A stretch of 40,770 bases of DNA from Escherichia phage mellemsur. Below the pieces are notes generated by a model. That model ran no database searches. It worked only from the letters and a program-made list of their open reading frames with translations, and had not been told where the DNA came from. Position numbers and translations under genes: made by a program. Each line of letters starts with the position of its first letter. The stretch's first letter is position 1. This document shows, piece after piece, positions 2,520-14,100 of this stretch. The DNA lies in sequence record MN850570.1; one strand, 5' to 3'.

Positions 2520-2909
2520 TTACTCCACTACCCAAAACAGTTCACCGTCATAAGTCCAAGCGGTATGCTGCCCGGCTTCCATCTGCTCGCCTGTTTTGCT
2601 GACCAGCTTGCCAGCAGGCTTGCCCGGATACGGTGAATCCATGAAGATTGCATCATCATCTTTGGTCACTACCATGATGCAGTCCTGTTCAAGAGCTTTA
2701 CAGAACAGCTTAACAGCCTGCCTGATTTCGTAGATTCCATCGACAGGAAATACCATGCTCAACTCATACTGATTGTCGAACTTGCCTGTCAGCGTGACCG
2801 GAATCACTCCGAACATATCCTGCACCGTTCGCAGTGCCTTGCAATGAAGCGCCAGATTAACACATTCAGCGTTATTCGGACGATATGCGCTTGCATAGAT
2901 ACGGTACAT
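2520..2909 (-). CDS. hypothetical protein, first gene downstream of early promoter cluster
   Basis: 129-aa ORF with GGAG Shine-Dalgarno; preceded by about 400-nt leader. Confidence 0.5.
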   Translation of the reverse strand: MYRIYASAYRPNNAECVNLALHCKALRTVQDMFGVIPVTLTGKFDNQYELSMVFPVDGIYEIRQAVKLFCKALEQDCIMVVTKDDDAIFMDSPYPGKPAGKLVSKTGEQMEAGQHTAWTYDGELFWVVE

Positions 2910-3341
2910 AGTTATTTCTCCAGTTGTTGGCTATTTTCAGGTGGATAGTGAACCCATTGTGACGCGCCGTACAGTCTGCACTCGTTGGCATTGATTGGCT
3001 TGTCGGATTCACTACCCTGAAAAATCGCCCCGCCCATTTCGCGCCGTGGATATTGTCTGCATCCACTCTCAGGAGTCCTCCAGCAGTCCGGCTCACCGTT
3101 TCCAGCTTGCCTACCTACCCGCTTCACTCCGCGCCTTATAAGACGTTCGGGATTGTGCTGATACTGCGCTGCGTCTATCGCGCTTCTCCGTTCCCATCGC
3201 ACCGGGCGCTACCCCTATTGCCTTTCGGCGGTGCCCTCACCAGTTCCTAGCTGCGCCGGATACCCATGAGGCCGAGACACTACGTGGCCTGTTTACGTTC
3301 ACTCAGAGCAGGTTGTTTTGCAACCTTTCAACTCGGTGCTG

Positions 3342-3370
3342 ATTACATCACATCGTATTCAGCGTGTCAA
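3342..3370 (-). promoter_or_regulatory. sigma70-like early promoter (TTGACA-N17-TGTAAT on minus strand)
   Basis: plus-strand attaca at 3342-3347 and tgtcaa at 3365-3370 with 17-nt spacer. Confidence 0.45.
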
Positions 3371-3421
3371 CTACTTTTTACTTCTGACTGACTGGCTTGC
3401 TGCCCTGTCAATCTGGAGCGT

Positions 3422-3450
3422 ATTACAGCATACTCGTTTCATCCTGTCAA
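3422..3450 (-). promoter_or_regulatory. sigma70-like early promoter (TTGACA-N17-TGTAAT on minus strand)
   Basis: plus-strand attaca 3422-3427 and tgtcaa 3445-3450, 17-nt spacer. Confidence 0.45.
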
Positions 3451-3558
3451 CCGTTTTATTCAGCGCCCGTTCTGAGATGAATAATCCGTACCAGTTTGCC
3501 TGCGTGTGTTTTAACGTCTTTATCAATGACTGTTTGGCTTGCTGGCTGACGTGGAAGC

Positions 3559-3587
3559 ATTACAGCATAGTGAGCTTGCCTTGTCAA
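3559..3587 (-). promoter_or_regulatory. sigma70-like early promoter (TTGACA-N17-TGTAAT on minus strand)
   Basis: plus-strand attaca 3559-3564 and tgtcaa 3582-3587, 17-nt spacer. Confidence 0.45.
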
Positions 3588-3661
3588 TACACTCCAGATT
3601 GTTAAAGAGCAGTGCTACCGTTCAATCTTGTCTACTGGGCTAGTGCCTTTCGACGTGATGA

Positions 3662-3691
3662 ATTACAGCACATAACCAAAACAGTTTGCAA
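3662..3691 (-). promoter_or_regulatory. sigma70-like early promoter (TTGCAA-N18-TGTAAT on minus strand)
   Basis: plus-strand attaca 3662-3667 and ttgcaa 3686-3691, 18-nt spacer. Confidence 0.4.
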
Positions 3692-3712
3692 GTATTATTT
3701 TCAAGAAAAGTG

Positions 3713-3731
3713 ATAAGTTACTGTAATCATT
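3713..3731. repeat. direct repeat copy 1 (ataagttactgtaatcatt) in AT-rich spacer
   Basis: 19/19 identity with 3792-3810; flanks also similar (gagatta / agataatta). Confidence 0.6.
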
Positions 3732-3791
3732 GAGATTAAAGTTTGATTGGATAATCACAACACTGGATAGAATACCGTTATCAGATAGGTC

Positions 3792-3810
3792 ATAAGTTAC
3801 TGTAATCATT
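3792..3810. repeat. direct repeat copy 2 (ataagttactgtaatcatt)
   Basis: identical to 3713-3731, about 79 bp apart. Confidence 0.6.
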
Positions 3811-3818
3811 AGATAATT

Positions 3819-3850
3819 ATGAAAGTGTCTATAGTGATATAGTATCGCTA
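3819..3850 (-). promoter_or_regulatory. conserved element copy B (minus strand reads tagcgatactatatcactatagacactttcat)
   Basis: 21-nt core tatcactatagacactttcat identical to 25712-25732 (there on plus strand); contains CACTATAGA, the core shared with T7/SP6-type promoters. Confidence 0.4.
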
Positions 3851-4320
3851 GATACGCAGAGCGAGCGCGGCGCAGCCGAAACAAGCGAGCGCCGAACGGA
3901 TGACGGATGGCAGACCGTAGGACTGACAGACGGCAGACAGTGAAGGCAGTAGGACAGTAACAGCAGGTAGCAGAGCATGACGCGCAGAGCTGGCAGGCGC
4001 AGACAGTAGACCGGCACACCACACAGCAGGACGGCAGCACCACGCCGCACACCGCTACACACCAGCACCACACAGCACCACGAAAAGAGACAGATACCCG
4101 CACGACCGAGCGCAGCACGCAGCACCGCACAGCCAGCGCAGAGCGTCCCCATAGGACAGCACCGCACAGCACAGCCAGCAGGACAGCGCACAGCACGTCA
4201 CACGGCAGACGATGAAACGCGACACGCACGAGCTATACCGCACGCAGGCAATCCTCTTGACGCGCCGCGCAGCGCACGCGAGCAAATATCGCGCACGTCG
4301 CGAGGCTAATCCGCGCACAC
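3851..4320. repeat. T-depleted (plus strand) degenerate short-repeat tract, presumed genome terminus / terminal-repeat region
   Basis: Manual count roughly 29 T in about 470 nt; recurring CAGCAC/CACAGCA/GACAGC units; lies between last late gene and early promoters. Confidence 0.65.
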
Positions 4321-4384
4321 GTCATGGGGGTACGCGCGGTCATTTGGGTCGAGGGAGGGCCAAGCATAAACGTGCAATTTTCAA

Positions 4385-4406
4385 GCCGGGGTATTGCACC
4401 CACGGC
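4385..4406 (-). terminator. possible hairpin downstream of endolysin gene
   Basis: imperfect GC stem gccgggg...ccacggc; A/U-rich but not U-run tail; weak. Confidence 0.2.
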
Positions 4407-4435
4407 CTGTTCATTGCCTCAGCTTTTGGATACCC

Positions 4436-4972
4436 CTACAGCGTCGCACAGTAAGCGCTACAGCGTTTTGCACGAGCAACCAAGGCATCCCTATAGCGAA
4501 CCACTGTCGGGGCTGTAGAAGCCTTTAGGAACGCAATACGAAGGTCACAGATGGCTGCTGCTGCGGAGTGAGGTTCCAGACGTTTGGCTGCTGCCACGGT
4601 AGCAGGGCCAATAACCCCGTCTTGTGCAACGCCGCATACCCGCTGTAGAGCTTTCGCCGCACGGGAGACACCGGAGTTGACACCGTAGTCAAACACGGCA
4701 CATGCAATCGCAGGGTGAAGCTCGTCACCTCGGATGGGGGCGTAGTAATCCCGTCGATAGATTGCTTCGGCTTGTGCTTTGGTGAGGTCTTTGATAGGCA
4801 CGCAAATAGTACCGCCAAGCCCAGTAGGGACACCACAAGCTCGGCCATCCAGTTTGCCATCACGAGCGTCGCTAATTCCATGATTCGTTTCCCCTCCGGT
4901 ATCGCCGGGCAGCTTGGTGTAACCACCTTCTGCCAGCCCGGTGAACCGCATACAGATTTCAAAGTTAGTCAT
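4436..4972 (-). CDS. endolysin, GH108-type N-acetylmuramidase with C-terminal peptidoglycan-binding-like domain
   Basis: N-terminal EGGY...D-x-GG-x-T-x-x-GI motif typical of GH108; no signal/SAR sequence; ATGA overlap with upstream gene. Confidence 0.75.
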   Translation of the reverse strand: MTNFEICMRFTGLAEGGYTKLPGDTGGETNHGISDARDGKLDGRACGVPTGLGGTICVPIKDLTKAQAEAIYRRDYYAPIRGDELHPAIACAVFDYGVNSGVSRAAKALQRVCGVAQDGVIGPATVAAAKRLEPHSAAAAICDLRIAFLKASTAPTVVRYRDALVARAKRCSAYCATL

Positions 4973-5822: not shown

Positions 5823-6017
5823 TTACGCTGCGGCGTTCGTCAGGTTAGTGAGCGCCGTTTGAACACGGGTCACGAACTCTTGGTAATACGCCACCAGCTC
5901 AGTGTTGGTGGTATCGAAGAAGTAGTCTTCCGTCCAAACGTTCAGATACTTGGCCGCCATATTACAGGCTGCCACGAACTCCGCACGTTCAGCAGCGGTA
6001 GAGTCAACAAGTGCCAT
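5823..6017 (-). CDS. hypothetical protein
   Basis: 64-aa ORF between post-terminase gene and lysis cassette. Confidence 0.45.
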   Translation of the reverse strand: MALVDSTAAERAEFVAACNMAAKYLNVWTEDYFFDTTNTELVAYYQEFVTRVQTALTNLTNAAA

Positions 6018-8785: not shown

Positions 8786-11158
8786 TTAGATGTAAGCCAC
8801 CGGGTAGGTAGCGGCGAGCTGCGTTCCCGCAGGGATTGCCGTCACAAGGGGCGGTGTAATGTCGATGCGCACCGGGTTTCCGATGTTGTTGTCCACCTGA
8901 TATGGAGCACGCACCACCGTTACAGTGAGCGTACCGCCGCTCGGCCCGGCACCCGGAATGTTGAGCCGAGTACCAGCAGAGATTGGCTTATGGTAAAGCC
9001 ACGAGGTGGATGCCTGAGTACCAGCCGGAGTCAGGTTCTGCTCCAGATACGTCTGGCCAGCGGCAGCAGCACGTACCTTGAAGTTGTTGCCATCATCCGG
9101 GATATACGCACCGAACCGGGTCACGATGAAATTGCCACCTGAGCCATCGGTCTTGAACAGCACAGTACCTTCGCAGAACTCTTTCCCGGTAGGGAACTCA
9201 TTACCGTCAAGGGTAGCGAGGTCGTTCGGCAGCGTGTACATGCGGTTGACCGGGGACAGGATGACACCCACGTTACCTTGGATGTTGGTGTACGGGATAG
9301 CACGCACGTTGGAGTTCAGCGTACTGATATCCGAGTAGCGAGCCTTACTGTACAGCGCACCCTCGGTCATGCCCGGCCCGTAGAAGTTCACGTTCACCAT
9401 GTTGAGAACAGTCTTCTTACGCGGGTACAGACCGTTGGATGACGTACCGCCGCTGGAGTCGTCGCCCACAGCGTCGAACTCCACACCAGTAACGTTGGTC
9501 ATATTCAACAGAGTTGCCACACCGAACAGCGTCATCTTGTAGCAGTGGATATTTTCAAGGTGGTACGTGTTGGTGTTGTCATCGTCGGAGCCGACACCAG
9601 CGTAGAAGCGCCCGGTGCGGGTCTGTACGTTACGCACAGTCATGTCAAACGATGGGCAAGCTACACCCGGCGTACCGCCAGCACCTGCTTGGTTCGCACC
9701 CCACTCCAGCATCACGACACGAATGTCGCCCGGCGCGGTAGACCCGGTGTTCAGAGGCTCACCGACTACACCGTCAATGGTCATGCGTTTGCAGCCGTAC
9801 GTGATTACGCCAGCGGCGCTCAGGCCAGTACCGATAGACACGGATAGGTCAGGGTTGGCCACTACGTTCTCGCAGGTGCTGTCACGCGTAACCTCGAAGT
9901 GGACGACCTGACGCACGCCACGCGGAGCATGGACGTTACGGACAGTGACGTTCTTCGCATACTGCGTCTCAGCAGCATCCCAACCAAACGGGCCTTGACC
10001 AGCGATACCGATACCGATACCCCAGTTGGACAGGGGGATTGGCGCATTGGTGCCGTCGATGTTCTCAAGGAAGATGTTCTCAATCAGCAGGCCACCATCA
10101 TAGTGCTTGTTGATTACGTTCATCTCGATACCGTCACCCTGCATATCCATCATGGTAATGCCACGGATAACGCCGTTGGTGATAGCCTCACCAGTACCCT
10201 GCTGGAGAATACCGAACTTGCCATTGCGGTGGATACCGTTCTCAATGACGTAACTGCCCCCGGCGATGTTGCCTTGGAACAGGATAGACGTAACCTTGGA
10301 GTTACTCGGCGCACTGGTGAACTCATAGTCAGCGATGCGTACCTCACCACCCCAGTAAGCTACACGGACAGTGGAGGCCACGAAGTTACGGAAGGTGGAG
10401 TTCAGTAGGCGAATGTCAGCCTTGCCGTGCCACGTACCGCCTACGACCTCAATACCGTCCATCAGGACAGTGGAGTCCACCGTACCTTCCCAGCCACGAG
10501 CGTCAACGACCTTGCCGTTGGCTTTCGCATAGTCGAAGCAAGCCTGTACCGCAGCGGCGACAGAGGCGTACCCGGTGTTGTTGGTGAACTCGGACAGGCA
10601 GACGGTATCCTGACGGTCGAGGAACGTGCCCCCGCCGAGAGTACCAATCCACTTACCGCCGTCAGCCATTGCCAGAGCAATCGCCAGAGCGGAGTCCGGG
10701 ATATCAACCAGAGGAATCATGAACGGCTGGCCATTGCTGTCAAAGCCCAGTGCCTTGTTGCGGCGGCCAGCGACGTTCGGTAGTGCGTTGATAGAGACCT
10801 CGGAGTTCGGAACACGGACGGCGCGGTCAAGCGGCGCGAGCCATGCTTCCTGAGTTTCCTCAGCCTTGAACAGAATCTGCTCAAAGTTCTCGTCAAGGTT
10901 CTGCCCGGTGAAGGCAGCATCTTGGCCGAACTTGTTCAGCAGAACCTCAGTGGTGTAGCGTTGTAGTCTGACAATCACCCCGGCGAGCGGGGCGGTGTCG
11001 AAGATAATCTGTTTGGTCACAGAGTTATAGGTGTACCCTTCCGTTTGGAGTTCGGAGTTGAGGTACACCTGAATCTCAGTGAACACGCGCTGCTCAAACG
11101 TGACGAGGAATGCGGTCTGTGAACCGTTCGCCACGTAAGCATTGTAGCTGTTCGCCAT
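8786..11158 (-). CDS. tail fiber / tailspike with beta-helix (depolymerase-like) domain
   Basis: 790 aa; N-terminus resembles T7 gp17-type particle-attachment region; central region has repetitive G-x-x-NV / VxNV beta-helix-like pattern. Confidence 0.65.
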   Translation of the reverse strand: MANSYNAYVANGSQTAFLVTFEQRVFTEIQVYLNSELQTEGYTYNSVTKQIIFDTAPLAGVIVRLQRYTTEVLLNKFGQDAAFTGQNLDENFEQILFKAEETQEAWLAPLDRAVRVPNSEVSINALPNVAGRRNKALGFDSNGQPFMIPLVDIPDSALAIALAMADGGKWIGTLGGGTFLDRQDTVCLSEFTNNTGYASVAAAVQACFDYAKANGKVVDARGWEGTVDSTVLMDGIEVVGGTWHGKADIRLLNSTFRNFVASTVRVAYWGGEVRIADYEFTSAPSNSKVTSILFQGNIAGGSYVIENGIHRNGKFGILQQGTGEAITNGVIRGITMMDMQGDGIEMNVINKHYDGGLLIENIFLENIDGTNAPIPLSNWGIGIGIAGQGPFGWDAAETQYAKNVTVRNVHAPRGVRQVVHFEVTRDSTCENVVANPDLSVSIGTGLSAAGVITYGCKRMTIDGVVGEPLNTGSTAPGDIRVVMLEWGANQAGAGGTPGVACPSFDMTVRNVQTRTGRFYAGVGSDDDNTNTYHLENIHCYKMTLFGVATLLNMTNVTGVEFDAVGDDSSGGTSSNGLYPRKKTVLNMVNVNFYGPGMTEGALYSKARYSDISTLNSNVRAIPYTNIQGNVGVILSPVNRMYTLPNDLATLDGNEFPTGKEFCEGTVLFKTDGSGGNFIVTRFGAYIPDDGNNFKVRAAAAGQTYLEQNLTPAGTQASTSWLYHKPISAGTRLNIPGAGPSGGTLTVTVVRAPYQVDNNIGNPVRIDITPPLVTAIPAGTQLAATYPVAYI

Positions 11159-14100
11159 TATTCACCCTTAACTGCTTCGTTGAGTGCTCGGACACCCGGC
11201 ACAATGGAGATTAGTGGGAGAGCCTGAATGATGTTCCCGGCTGCCTTGCGAGCGTTATGCCCGGCTTGGTCGATATCGCCAGTGGCCAGACTACCTGCTG
11301 TAGCAGAGGTGGCACCAGCAACACCGTACAGACGGTCGAGGAACAACAGACCCGGCGCACCAAAGCTGCGCTGCTGCCCGGTCAGAACTCCAGTGAACTC
11401 AGAGGCAAAGCCGATAGCGCCGAGATAGTTCAGTGCCTGACCAGCCAGTTTGTTCGGAGCCATGGTATCCGGGTCAGAGAATGCCTTACCGGAAATCACG
11501 TTATTGGCAGCAGTGGCCATCATCGCCAGCGGATACTGGTACGCCATCAGCGTTGCCAGCCCACGGGCACCCTCACGATTCCAAGTACCAACCAGAGTCT
11601 TGTTGTGCGTTGCCGCGACGAATCGACGGAACGTAAACAGGAACTTACCCAGCGTACTGAACTCAGCAAATGCAGGCAGCTCACCTACGCGAGCGCGAAC
11701 AATAGCGTCATCCATGGCATTCATCATGACAATGCGAGAGCGATTGAACACCCCTTCATCCCAAGCATCAGGCTTGGTGCCATGAGTACCAACCTGCTTG
11801 CGAATGTCAGCCAGCAGCGCGTCATTGGCACCGTAGGTTTTCATGGCTGCAATAGCCTTGGCATCACCTTCGGCTGCCTTACGCAGCGTCTGCATCACGA
11901 GCGCAGCATTGGTTCGAGTCTGGTGGAAGTGGATGTATTTCTGCATGTTGATGAACATCGTGGCATCGCGCAGGTGTTCCATACGCATGACCCACGGAGA
12001 CTTATCCGCAGAGAACATGTCGTCATAGTGCTGCATGATTGGGCGCATACGAATATCACTCGCTACAGCCGCAGTCAGCGCTTCCTCGGCATCCAGAGCC
12101 AATTGACGACCTTCCTTAGTAGACACCCTCATTTGCTTAAATAGTGCGCGTGCTTCGGGAATTGTACGCATCATGGCGCGAAACGTATTGACTGCCCCGA
12201 AACGTTGCATCATCGTGCCGTATTCTACCAACTGCCACAGGCCAGATGCAGCCAGACCAGTCGCCTGAGTCAGTGCCGAAAGCTGGCGCATGAACTCCGG
12301 CATTTCCTCACCAACAGGAGCACCTTGGTAGTAAGCCATGATGTTGTCGTATTGGTCGAGAGCCTTACGGCGTGCCGTGCTATCCGGGATGGATTTGGCC
12401 AGAGCCTCGCGAGCGGCGGCGCGTTCAGCATCAGTACCCAGTCCAGCCTCATGCAGAGCCAGTCGCCCGGTAATGCGGCGGTTATAGCTGTCCATCATAC
12501 TGGTGATGCTGTCGTCGAACAGGTCACGCACCTGCAAGTTAGGGCCGAGCTGGTGCATCATGTCGATGTTGATACGGCTCTTGAGCATCGACGGTCGGCC
12601 AGCGTCCGAGCCAGACTCACGAAGGAGTGCGGAAGCACGGGCCTTGGCAGCCTCGTCGAGACCTTTCGCGTTCTCAATGATTTCGAGCAATTCATCGCGA
12701 CCTTCCTTGTTGATAATCATACCGGAGTTGTCGATACCGTAACCCTTACGACGAGCACGCTCAACCATGGCATGGGCAATGACGTTGGCAGTCGGACGGT
12801 CAGTACCGATACCGCGCTGCACAGCGGTCGTCATCTGCTTCATGAATGGCTTCTTGCCGAGCAACTGCTCAGCCTGCTCAATCTTGGTCACGTTCATCCG
12901 GCGCGGGTAGTAGTACGGGTTCTTGTCTACGAAGCCCGGTTCCACCATGCCCTTCGCTTCCAGCTCGCGGCCCACGGCGCGGGAGTATTCCCCCAGTCGG
13001 TCGGCGGCAGCGGCCACGTTAGCGTTGGCACCACGGAACTCTTTGTCAATCATGCGCTTGTCCAGCTCGAAACGGACAGCAGCTTCGAACTCCTGCTGCG
13101 CCCGGCGATAGCCCACTGGGTCACGGAAGCGACGGATGTTAGTCCAGCCGTCAGTGTTCAGTGCATTACGCAGGGTGTCCTCGTACTGGTTCAGCAGCAC
13201 GCCAAACCGAGCCTGAGTCTCACGCTGGATTGATGCAGCGGAAGTCATGTTCGGGTTCAGTGGGTCATCCAGCAGTCGTCCGGCGAGCGCACTGGCTTCA
13301 TCGGAGTGCTGACTGAATGACTTGAACAGAGACCATTCAAGGAACGGACGCTTAGGGTTGGTCTGCTCACCGCGACGAGCGAGGTCGAGACCGCGCTGCG
13401 CAGTGGCCCGGATGGATTCCGGCACCTCGTCAACCACAGTAGCGCCACGACCACCAAAGCCCAAGGACATGGCCATTGGCGACATAGCATTGTTCGGGTC
13501 GAACTGCGGTGGGTTGTTCGGGTCAATGCCATTACGACGCTGCATCTCTGCTGCAAATTCCTCTGGCGACAGGTCGGCCAGCGAGCGCTGTACCGGAGCC
13601 GGGCGATAGAAGGCAGTGGTGGCCGCCCCGTGCAGGGCAGCCGCAAAGATGATTTCGTTCTGAGACACTGGGCGTGCTTCGTTACCCACCGCTGTCATAG
13701 TGGCAGCAGTTGAAGCTGCACCGACAGCGGCGGTTCCGAGGCGACCTAATTTCAGGGCAGTGCCTGCTCCCATCGAGAGCAGGTCAGTGGCGAGGTACAG
13801 CGGGTCAGCGAATTGCAGAACCGCGTTCATCACCGGGGCAGTGTGAGCCAACTGGGTACGCTCGCGCATCTCTTGGAGCTGCTGCGTACGCCAGTTGAAC
13901 TCGTCCATGGATTTGGATTTAAACAGGAAGGTTCTGTCGTCTTCACCTACCGGGAACTGCACGTTCTGCAAAGCCTCGTTGGGCTTGAAGTCCGGGTCAG
14001 CCTGAAAGGTAGGCTTGTTGAAGGCGGCATCAAAGAGCTGAGTGGTATCCCAGTTCTTCACAGAAGCGCTCAACGCCGTGGCCATCGGAGTCGCTTCCAG

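Follow-up and report, generated by a model that had tools for sequence, protein, structure and literature searches.

The tract considered here occupies positions 3851-4320 in the genome of Escherichia phage mellemsur (sequence record MN850570.1), which was analysed as one stretch of 40,770 nucleotides (the window). All long open reading frames (ORFs) of the window are carried by the minus strand, and on this gene-sense strand the tract is adenine-poor. It is bordered on one side by the endolysin gene, the last late gene (4436-4972, minus strand; annotated as endolysin in the phages LF82-23, megetsur, altidsur and J8-65), and on the other by the AT-rich early promoter zone, a placement that an earlier note on this DNA had already recognized. 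We read the tract as the non-coding concatemer junction and left-end region of a Bonnellvirus genome assembled as a circle, and give this reading, including a mechanism inferred from phage T7, a probability of roughly 70%. The evidence supports a feature of an expected and known kind; its compositional twist was not found described in literature searches.

Bonnellvirus phages (Autographiviridae), namely LF82-23, megetsur, altidsur, Kc261 and J8-65, match the region at 82-98% identity. A query of 800 nucleotides, composed of the last 400 and the first 400 nucleotides of the window, aligns unbroken to relatives (99.3% identity to megetsur); the two ends of the window (1 and 40,770) are contiguous there and, therefore, the assembly is complete and circularly permuted. 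Judged by its sequence, the window is a complete, circularly permuted Bonnellvirus genome of the J8-65/LIMEzero group. The 25-mers of the predicted terminal repeat occur only once in the window, so that one repeat copy would have been collapsed in the assembly. At 40,770 bp, or about 41.0 kb once a second repeat copy is counted, the genome is approximately 1.1-1.7 kb shorter than those of most relatives (42.1-42.5 kb). For Kc261 (MW250275), the GenBank record has 42,432 bp and the paper gives 42,203 bp, a gap of 229 bp that is close to the expected length of a terminal repeat.

Base composition and short units

The 470 nucleotides of the tract contain 141 A, 162 C, 138 G and 29 T on the plus strand, i.e., 6.2% T versus 22.9% window-wide. 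The sliding base-composition check suggested in the earlier note places the lowest T count per 300 nucleotides (13) at about 3925, with a lowest value of 48 elsewhere and a median of 68; the AT skew peaks at +0.83 (4001-4200), with a GC content of 0.60-0.66. The reported T content of about 6% is, thus, accurate, and the rest of the window has nothing close to it. That the central 350 nucleotides should hold far less T was overstated, with 19 T (5.4%) found between 3900 and 4250, and only a core at 4008-4233 lies much lower (6 T in 226 nucleotides, 2.7%). The biased tract also reaches further than had been noted, to about 4352, approximately 30 nucleotides past the right edge at 4320.

Degenerate short units of the CAGCAC type, as described before, are real, though weakly tandem. 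The sense strand has eight copies of GTGCTG (the complement of CAGCAC) and six each of TGCTGT and GCTGTG; Tandem Repeats Finder (TRF) returns only low-scoring arrays with periods of 5, 7 and 10, and a repeat search yields families of 13-16 nucleotides with 4-5 copies each. Inverted repeats were not found by repeat search in 3600-4500.

The predicted genome end and terminal repeat

The window and 13 relatives were aligned in the sense orientation (14 Bonnellvirus sequences). The reference for the genome end is J8-65 (KM247287), a linear record with repeat regions annotated at 1-259 and 40723-40981, both copies being identical. Its nucleotide 1 is the T of TCGACCC, and this junction sequence is kept in all aligned relatives. 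By homology, the genome end of the window, which is also the outer edge of its terminal repeat, is predicted within CCTCCC|TCGACCC (4346-4358, minus strand), with the cut at 4353|4352. The predicted direct terminal repeat, present as one collapsed copy of about 246-257 bp, would extend from there to about 4100 (4100-4352, minus strand). Its inner edge falls at about 4107 by homology to J8-65 (246 bp) or, alternatively, at about 4096 (257 bp) if it abuts an ATCTGT motif as in T7, T3 and SP6.

The comparison with the termini of related phages, which the earlier note had recommended, thus reveals homology of the tract to the annotated 259-bp repeat of J8-65. The former reading of the tract as a genome terminus is borne out in that it aligns to the repeat and the left end of J8-65, while the predicted end itself lies just outside the interval that had been noted. 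Likewise, the view of the tract as a terminal repeat region holds for its right half (about 4100-4352), the left half being a unique leader.

Directly ahead of the predicted end, at a distance of 22 nucleotides, lies an invariant block, CCCGGCTTGAAAATTG (4375-4390, minus strand), a pac-like candidate for recognition by the terminase; it is invariant in 14 of the 14 aligned sequences and has a single occurrence in the window. More generally, a block of the form AAAATTG-N(14-20)-CCTCCC|TCGAC directly precedes the predicted repeat in Bonnellvirus and LIMEzero-like phages, regardless of the identity of their last gene. In L008 (block at about 4875-4915), which has additional genes past the endolysin gene, AAAATTG...CCTCCC|TCGACCC is kept directly ahead of the repeat, and the same applies to LIMEzero-like contigs; in L073, the block is located at about 11464-11492. 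Because of its conservation in L008 and the LIMEzero-like contigs, the block is part of the terminus rather than of the endolysin gene. It is a candidate for the terminase recognition and cutting region. A role as a repeated phage promoter is unsupported, given that it occurs once in the genome.

A further landmark is the left-end signature CCCCCATG (4323-4330, minus strand), 23-30 nucleotides from the predicted end. In a panel of 11 left ends (T7, T3, SP6, gh-1, phiKMV, LKA1, LIMElight, KP34, JG068, RSB1 and J8-65, where the RSB1 record lacks a second repeat copy and its terminal redundancy is unverified), CCCCC[A/G]T is found within the first 40 nucleotides, about 20-35 nucleotides from the left end, in 10 phages, and LIMElight has CCCCAT. 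Within the repeat, an indel-rich zone of GTGCTG/GCTGG repeats (4149-4205, minus strand) shows indels of 10 nucleotides and larger between close relatives. The conserved islands of the alignment also include GGACGC.CTGCGCTGG and CCAGCTC..CGCGTC; the zones between islands consist of GTGCTG-type units, with indels of 1-35 nucleotides among relatives that are mostly not multiples of three. Position, homology to J8-65, the end signature and the non-coding character point to the class of direct terminal repeats with left-end leader known from Autographiviridae.

Contigs ending at the physical terminus were also sought: the exact endolysin sequence has no database record, a pattern scan with fixed spacing was empty, and a scan with variable gaps led to two new LIMEzero-like contigs, besides relatives that were already known and three matches due to chance. 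For practical purposes, a terminal repeat of about 250 bp is predicted for this genome, and the permuted assembly is best opened at the left end, i.e., at 4352 on the minus strand.

The conserved island bordering the predicted repeat

Where the predicted repeat stops on its inner side, the alignment contains a conserved island, GGGTATCTGTCTCTTTT (4083-4099, minus strand), which is a candidate pause/termination signal of the concatemer-junction type for the phage RNA polymerase or, alternatively, a candidate processing signal. Class II signals have the consensus ATCTGTT followed by a U run, and the complex of T7 polymerase and lysozyme is reported to pause at the concatemer-junction signal, to contact gp18 and gp19 and to start maturation and packaging. 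Across the alignment, the island is kept as ATCTGTC or ATCTATC with a subsequent T run, and GGGTATCTGTCTCTTTT is unique in the window. The window has ATCTGTC and then TCTTTTC (6/7 of the class II core), the J8-65 clade ATCTATC and then TTTTTTC (5/7). The strict T7 core ATCTGTT is, thus, not present, the phage's own polymerase being divergent; a U-rich run does lie just downstream (ATCTGTCTCTTTTCG), and the location of the island, 12 nucleotides beyond the edge transferred by homology, is that of a class II signal, which marks the inner repeat edge in a concatemer junction.

A comparable motif marks the inner edge in several phages of the panel. In T7, ATCTGT is located at 161, and the exact 160-nt terminal redundancy, checked by sequence, gives the edge CCCT|ATCTGTT; in SP6, it is located at 174, where the likewise checked 174-nt redundancy gives GGGCTA|TCTGTT. 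The motif is found at 232 in T3 (annotated repeat 231), at 210 and 220 in gh-1 (repeat 216), and at 216 in JG068 (repeat 216). LKA1, LIMElight and KP34 have no ATCTGT, yet T runs of the TGCCT(C)TTTT type occur at their annotated edges (YCTCTTTT at or near the inner edge). In LIMEzero-like contigs, CTCTAYCTCTTTT follows 307-362 nucleotides from TCGACCC.

The leader, the AT-rich zone and the early promoters

Beyond the island, the sense strand continues with a post-repeat array of degenerate GTGGTGCTG-type units of highly variable length (3995-4082, minus strand), delimited by repeat search and alignment. TRF detects a period-10 array at 4017-4081, the repeat families D1, D2 and D4 lie in this array, and many indels occur among relatives. 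It is, thus, a short direct-repeat array just inside the left repeat, whose copy number varies among close relatives, which agrees with the earlier expectation of T7-like arrays of short repeats. The distal adenine-poor leader with CTGTC/CTGCC units follows (3851-3994, minus strand; from alignment and composition) and is better conserved within the main clade. The fast-evolving, indel-rich short-repeat spacer measures about 240 nucleotides. T7-like Yersinia phages are reported to differ in how many repeats separate their left repeat from the first promoter; our literature searches found no function assigned to the short-repeat arrays beside T7-group terminal repeats.

The leader is devoid of ATG, of stop codons, of sigma-70 -10 hexamers on either strand, of palindromes containing A or T, and of inverted repeats; it is genetically inert because adenine is excluded.

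Next comes an AT-rich zone (3640-3850, minus strand; composition and repeat search) with two 28-nt direct repeats at 3704-3731 and 3783-3810. These are 79 nucleotides apart, each contains the near-palindrome TTACTGTAA, and they might serve for protein binding ahead of the early promoters. A pattern search on the sense strand identified three early promoters of the host type (TTGACA-N17-TGTAAT, extended by TGn) at 3587-3559, 3450-3422 and 3370-3342 (minus strand), i.e., 765, 902 and 982 nucleotides from the predicted end; J8-65 has the same three. They have a G at the second -10 position in place of the usually essential A, which is kept in J8-65. A consensus promoter scan of 2800-4600 returned none, and it is this G (TGTAAT) that explains why the generic scan missed the early promoters. 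A fourth TGnTGTAAT with the -35 element TTGCAA is located near 3670 (about 3662-3692, minus strand). The early transcripts of phage LUZ19 begin 913-1248 nucleotides from its left end. The first early gene encodes a SAMase homologue (2520-2909, minus strand) with 92% identity over 129 amino acids to the "anti-restriction SAMase" of J8-65.

Two further features of the whole window are of note. GATC and CCWGG are both absent (148 ± 11 and 89 ± 9, respectively, expected from shuffles), meaning that Dam and Dcm sites are wholly avoided across the genome. In addition, there are seven exact Chi octamers (GCTGGTGG) at 5891, 7337, 8726, 19327, 20171, 35667 and 39761, all on the minus strand, which amounts to seven on the gene-sense strand and none on the opposite strand; 2.7 are expected in total, and seven were reached in 3 of 100 shuffles. 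Their orientation would suit RecBCD coming in from the right genome end, but the one-sidedness may merely mirror codon usage (CTG-GTG). A Chi cluster that guards the end was rejected for the tract itself, which contains no exact Chi and only one 7/8 match; furthermore, the T-free 3'-ended strand at the left end cannot hold Chi.

Substitutions and folding

Among the minor alleles in all ungapped columns of the tract, a set which includes the divergent J8-65 clade and columns beside indels, there are 42 A, 84 C, 64 G and 79 T, with 19 G→A versus 41 C→T. A strict set, taken from the main clade alone and only from columns that lie 4 or more positions away from a gap, gives 10 changes to A versus 19 to T, 5 G→A versus 6 C→T, and 3 C→A versus 12 G→T (p = 0.035). 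In this set, A was gained at 10 of 311 sites and T at 19 of 244, while 8 of 27 A sites were lost, from which a stationary A content of about 10% is computed; the asymmetry is, therefore, maintained and not decaying. Nevertheless, the numbers of the strict set are too small to tell selection from slippage turnover of A-free units. We consider the exclusion of adenine a maintained property of the spacer and not a signal in itself.

Folding as single-stranded DNA was compared with 224 GC-matched windows of 200 nucleotides from this and other Autographiviridae. The spacer folds much more weakly than this background in mellemsur (z = +3.6 for the top and +3.1 for the bottom strand), and z values of +3.05, +3.1, +2.65 and +2.0 were obtained for J8-65, LIMEzero, phiKMV and LKA1, respectively. 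The CCTAAAG array of T7 reaches +3.7 (-1.4 kcal/mol for 200 nucleotides), and T3 and KP34 are ordinary. The terminal repeat folds normally (z between -0.3 and +0.7). The weak folding of the spacer results from its three-letter composition. Compared with dinucleotide shuffles, the repeat as single-stranded DNA (z +0.8) and the 502-nt tract as RNA (z +0.5) are no better than shuffled sequences, by which a specific RNA or single-stranded DNA structure was ruled out. Low self-structure is no proof of a single-stranded stage, but it is the one property that links the A-poor and G-poor arrays.

A proposed order of events

On the sense strand, the parts would follow each other in the order of the AAAATTG...CCTCCC|TCGACCC block with the putative terminase cut at 4353|4352, the repeat of about 250 bp to about 4100, the TATCTGTCTCTTTT island, the spacer of about 240 nucleotides of short A-free repeats, the AT-rich zone, and three presumably strong host promoters driving the SAMase gene. 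As inferred from T7, the repeats at both ends of replicated genomes would pair, resulting in concatemers with one repeat per junction. By analogy with T7, late transcription by the phage RNA polymerase would pass through the endolysin gene into the repeat and pause or stop at the T-run signal of the inner edge. Such a pause could keep late transcription out of the early region and may also mark the junction for the terminase, with the outer edge being cut while the repeat is duplicated. At infection, this end would enter first, with the spacer setting the promoters at about 0.8-1.0 kb from the end, which is comparable to LUZ19. Roles of the tract in packaging and concatemer resolution are, thus, suggested by analogy with T7.

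Several points weigh against the reading as a junction and left end. The repeat boundaries have been carried over from one annotated relative, J8-65, whose paper gives no account of how the ends were mapped, and 12 nucleotides separate the annotated inner edge of J8-65 (259) from the ATCTAT motif that follows. With ATCTGTC, the island agrees with just 6 of the 7 positions of the T7 class II core (the J8-65 clade has ATCTATC), and any change of the core is reported to abolish termination by T7 polymerase. Moreover, two further copies of ATCTGTC are found within genes on the sense strand, and ATCTGT was not found in the left ends of phiKMV, LKA1 and KP34. As to composition, evidence of selection against adenine is weak, considering the strict counts (to-A 10, to-T 19; G→A 5 versus C→T 6), and composition fully accounts for the low self-structure (z of about 0.5-0.8 versus shuffles).

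Alternative explanations

That the tract encodes a protein rich in Cys, Val, Arg and Leu, as annotated in some GenBank relatives, seems scarcely credible. There are indeed open frames of 188, 120 and 87 amino acids on the gene strand, besides an 80-aa ORF on the plus strand, and "hypothetical protein" coding sequences have been placed over the homologous tract in HHU8 (L055, 560-1108), Kc261 (L056, 671-1210), ROV85 (L057, 719-1285) and forsur (L058, 761-1276). However, all three minus-strand frames are open because stop codons need A, as the earlier note had argued, and the frames begin at GTG. None of the four ORFs has a match in Pfam or PHROG, the indels among the 13 relatives, mostly not multiples of three, break the frames, and the homologous DNA of J8-65 is an annotated terminal repeat. 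The coding reading was, thus, rejected, and the coding sequences annotated across the tract in relatives are very likely composition artefacts. We doubt just as strongly that the tract specifies a non-coding RNA with a defined structure or a DNA element that folds, for example an origin hairpin. In its favour, the non-coding region is long and conserved, and there is one weak terminator-like hairpin (4303-4289); against it stand the fold z-scores given above, the lack of inverted repeats and the high indel turnover, and a known RNA family was rejected since the Rfam 15 covariance models yield no match at E ≤ 1 in 2800-4600. A further proposal, which we hold to be very unlikely, is that the leading end is a "stealth" segment, with the first DNA that enters being immune to restriction until SAMase is made. 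An A-free strand holds no Type I site, given that a methylatable A is needed on both strands, and no palindrome containing A or T, and one-strand sites such as CAGCAG are possible in one orientation only. In line with this, a site search found EcoKI, EcoBI, EcoAI, EcoR124I, GATC and CCWGG sites all absent from the tract, CAGCAG, AGACC and CAGAG occur in it on one strand only, the first gene codes for SAMase, and avoidance is genome-wide (no GATC versus 148 expected; no CCWGG versus 89). Conversely, about 1 kb of promoters and 5' leader, which also enters before SAMase is made, is ordinary in composition, palindromes of G and C only (GCGC, CGCG) are abundant in the tract, and Type I sites are present in the rest of the genome. 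Base depletion does not track SAMase either, because T3 has SAMase as its first gene without depletion, while depletion is strongest in phiKMV.

It is quite possible, albeit at less than even odds, that adenine poverty has no function of its own, with replication slippage and unequal pairing of A-free units copying A-poor from A-poor sequence, so that the composition is inherited even where the sequences can no longer be aligned; the identity of the region as terminal repeat and leader would be left as it is. Close relatives do differ mainly by indels of 7-29 nucleotides built of the same units, the strict substitution counts are only weakly asymmetric, lineages differ in their units and even in the depleted base (the T7 CCTAAAG array is G-poor, 10-12%), and low self-structure follows from composition alone. 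What slippage accounts for less readily is that the bias is found also in non-repetitive conserved parts of the repeat and in the distal leader, as well as in several genera whose left ends do not align (phiKMV, LKA1, LIMEzero, RSB1), and that the predicted stationary A content of about 10% implies maintenance. It is decidedly improbable, in our estimate, that the post-repeat spacer has been selected to be structure-free due to its being single-stranded at some stage, for instance where end resection or an incompletely made lagging strand leaves a 3' tail or gap as concatemers form, or where a strand is displaced during repeat duplication. Such selection would be consistent with folding 3-4 standard deviations weaker than the GC-matched background here, with weak folding also in J8-65, LIMEzero, phiKMV, LKA1 and the unrelated T7 array, and with the lack of inverted repeats in 3600-4500. 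Yet the spacers of T3 and KP34 are ordinary, the terminal repeat, which must anneal, folds normally, any asymmetric array of short direct repeats would behave in this way, and the single-stranded stage of the spacer is a supposition. Broader, and unlikely but worth keeping in view, is the notion that strand-specific exclusion of one base over several hundred nucleotides at and just inside the left repeat is a selected rule spanning lineages (A in phiKMV, LKA1, LIMEzero and Bonnellvirus; G in T7), which would provide a structure-free and signal-free segment for a vulnerable stage, single-stranded or otherwise, in concatemer formation, repeat duplication or genome entry. If true, a testable function would be at hand for the short-repeat arrays beside T7-group terminal repeats. 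Deamination of cytosine in exposed single strands was rejected by reasoning; for the left end, it predicts G→A changes of the sense strand, a direction opposite to what is observed, and the sense strand has no A/T skew genome-wide.

Comparison with known left ends

Adenine poverty of the sense strand is not confined to mellemsur. It is found in phiKMV (nucleotides 1-800, 4-11% A, repeat 414), LKA1 (1-450), LIMEzero (100-600) and RSB1 (1-400), is weaker in LIMElight, KP34 and SP6, and is absent in T3 and gh-1. A scan of IMG/VR contigs anchored on TerL revealed more A-poor tracts downstream of late genes, in related and in high-GC contigs, with many contigs stopping short of the relevant region, so that the scan gives no frequency. 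An IMG/VR contig (L108, 69% GC) has an adenine-poor end in which a 27-nt unit (GCGCCTGAGCGTGTGCGCGTGCGCC) is repeated in tandem at least four times (8990-9100); the unit is largely built of runs in which pyrimidines and purines alternate. Long runs of alternating CG/TG can likewise be seen in the repeats of J8-65, RSB1 and L073, in their outer half, and may favour Z-DNA. Full-text searching of the literature yielded no account of terminal regions poor in adenine. In distant lineages, T7 among them, depletion of one base and low self-structure recur in the post-repeat spacer; if this spacer property is selected, it would point to a mechanistic requirement in concatemer processing or DNA entry. 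For predicting the ends of phiKMV-like phages from sequence, the AAAATTG...CCTCCC|TCGAC block, CCCCCRT near the end and the ATCTGT/CTCTTTT island at the inner edge form a set of landmarks.

The closest counterpart is the left end of J8-65, which is homologous and alignable. It shares with the window the TCGACCC start, an adenine-poor region of about 500 nucleotides (5-12% A in J8-65), the ATCT(G/A)TCT..TTTT island, the AT-rich zone, the three TTGACA-N17-TGTAAT promoters and SAMase as the first gene. Differences of the J8-65 clade are many indels and approximately 15-25% substitutions in the tract, the ATCTATC version of the island, and two repeat copies versus the one collapsed copy of the window.

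More distant are phiKMV and LKA1 (Krylovirinae), with repeats of 414 and 298 bp. Like the window, they are poor in adenine on the sense strand (4-11% A in these two) throughout the repeat and for several hundred nucleotides beyond it, as far as the early promoters; they also have short repeats of G, T and C, and a T-run motif at or near the inner edge. In contrast to the window, they are unalignable, are built of other units (CCTGG, GCCTCTTGTGG) and have no ATCTGT, and the depleted zone of phiKMV is longer, at about 800 nucleotides.

In T7, the same order of parts is found, i.e., the end, the CCCCCAT signature, the repeat, TATCTGT at the inner edge, a short-repeat array, host promoters and an anti-restriction first gene. 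The T7 array resembles the spacer of the window in being base-depleted and almost free of self-structure. However, there is no sequence homology between the two; the T7 array is G-poor (10-12%) and A-rich rather than A-poor, the core reads ATCTGTT versus ATCTGTC followed by a T run, the repeat has 160 bp, and the promoters are located at 498-750 versus 765-982 in the window.

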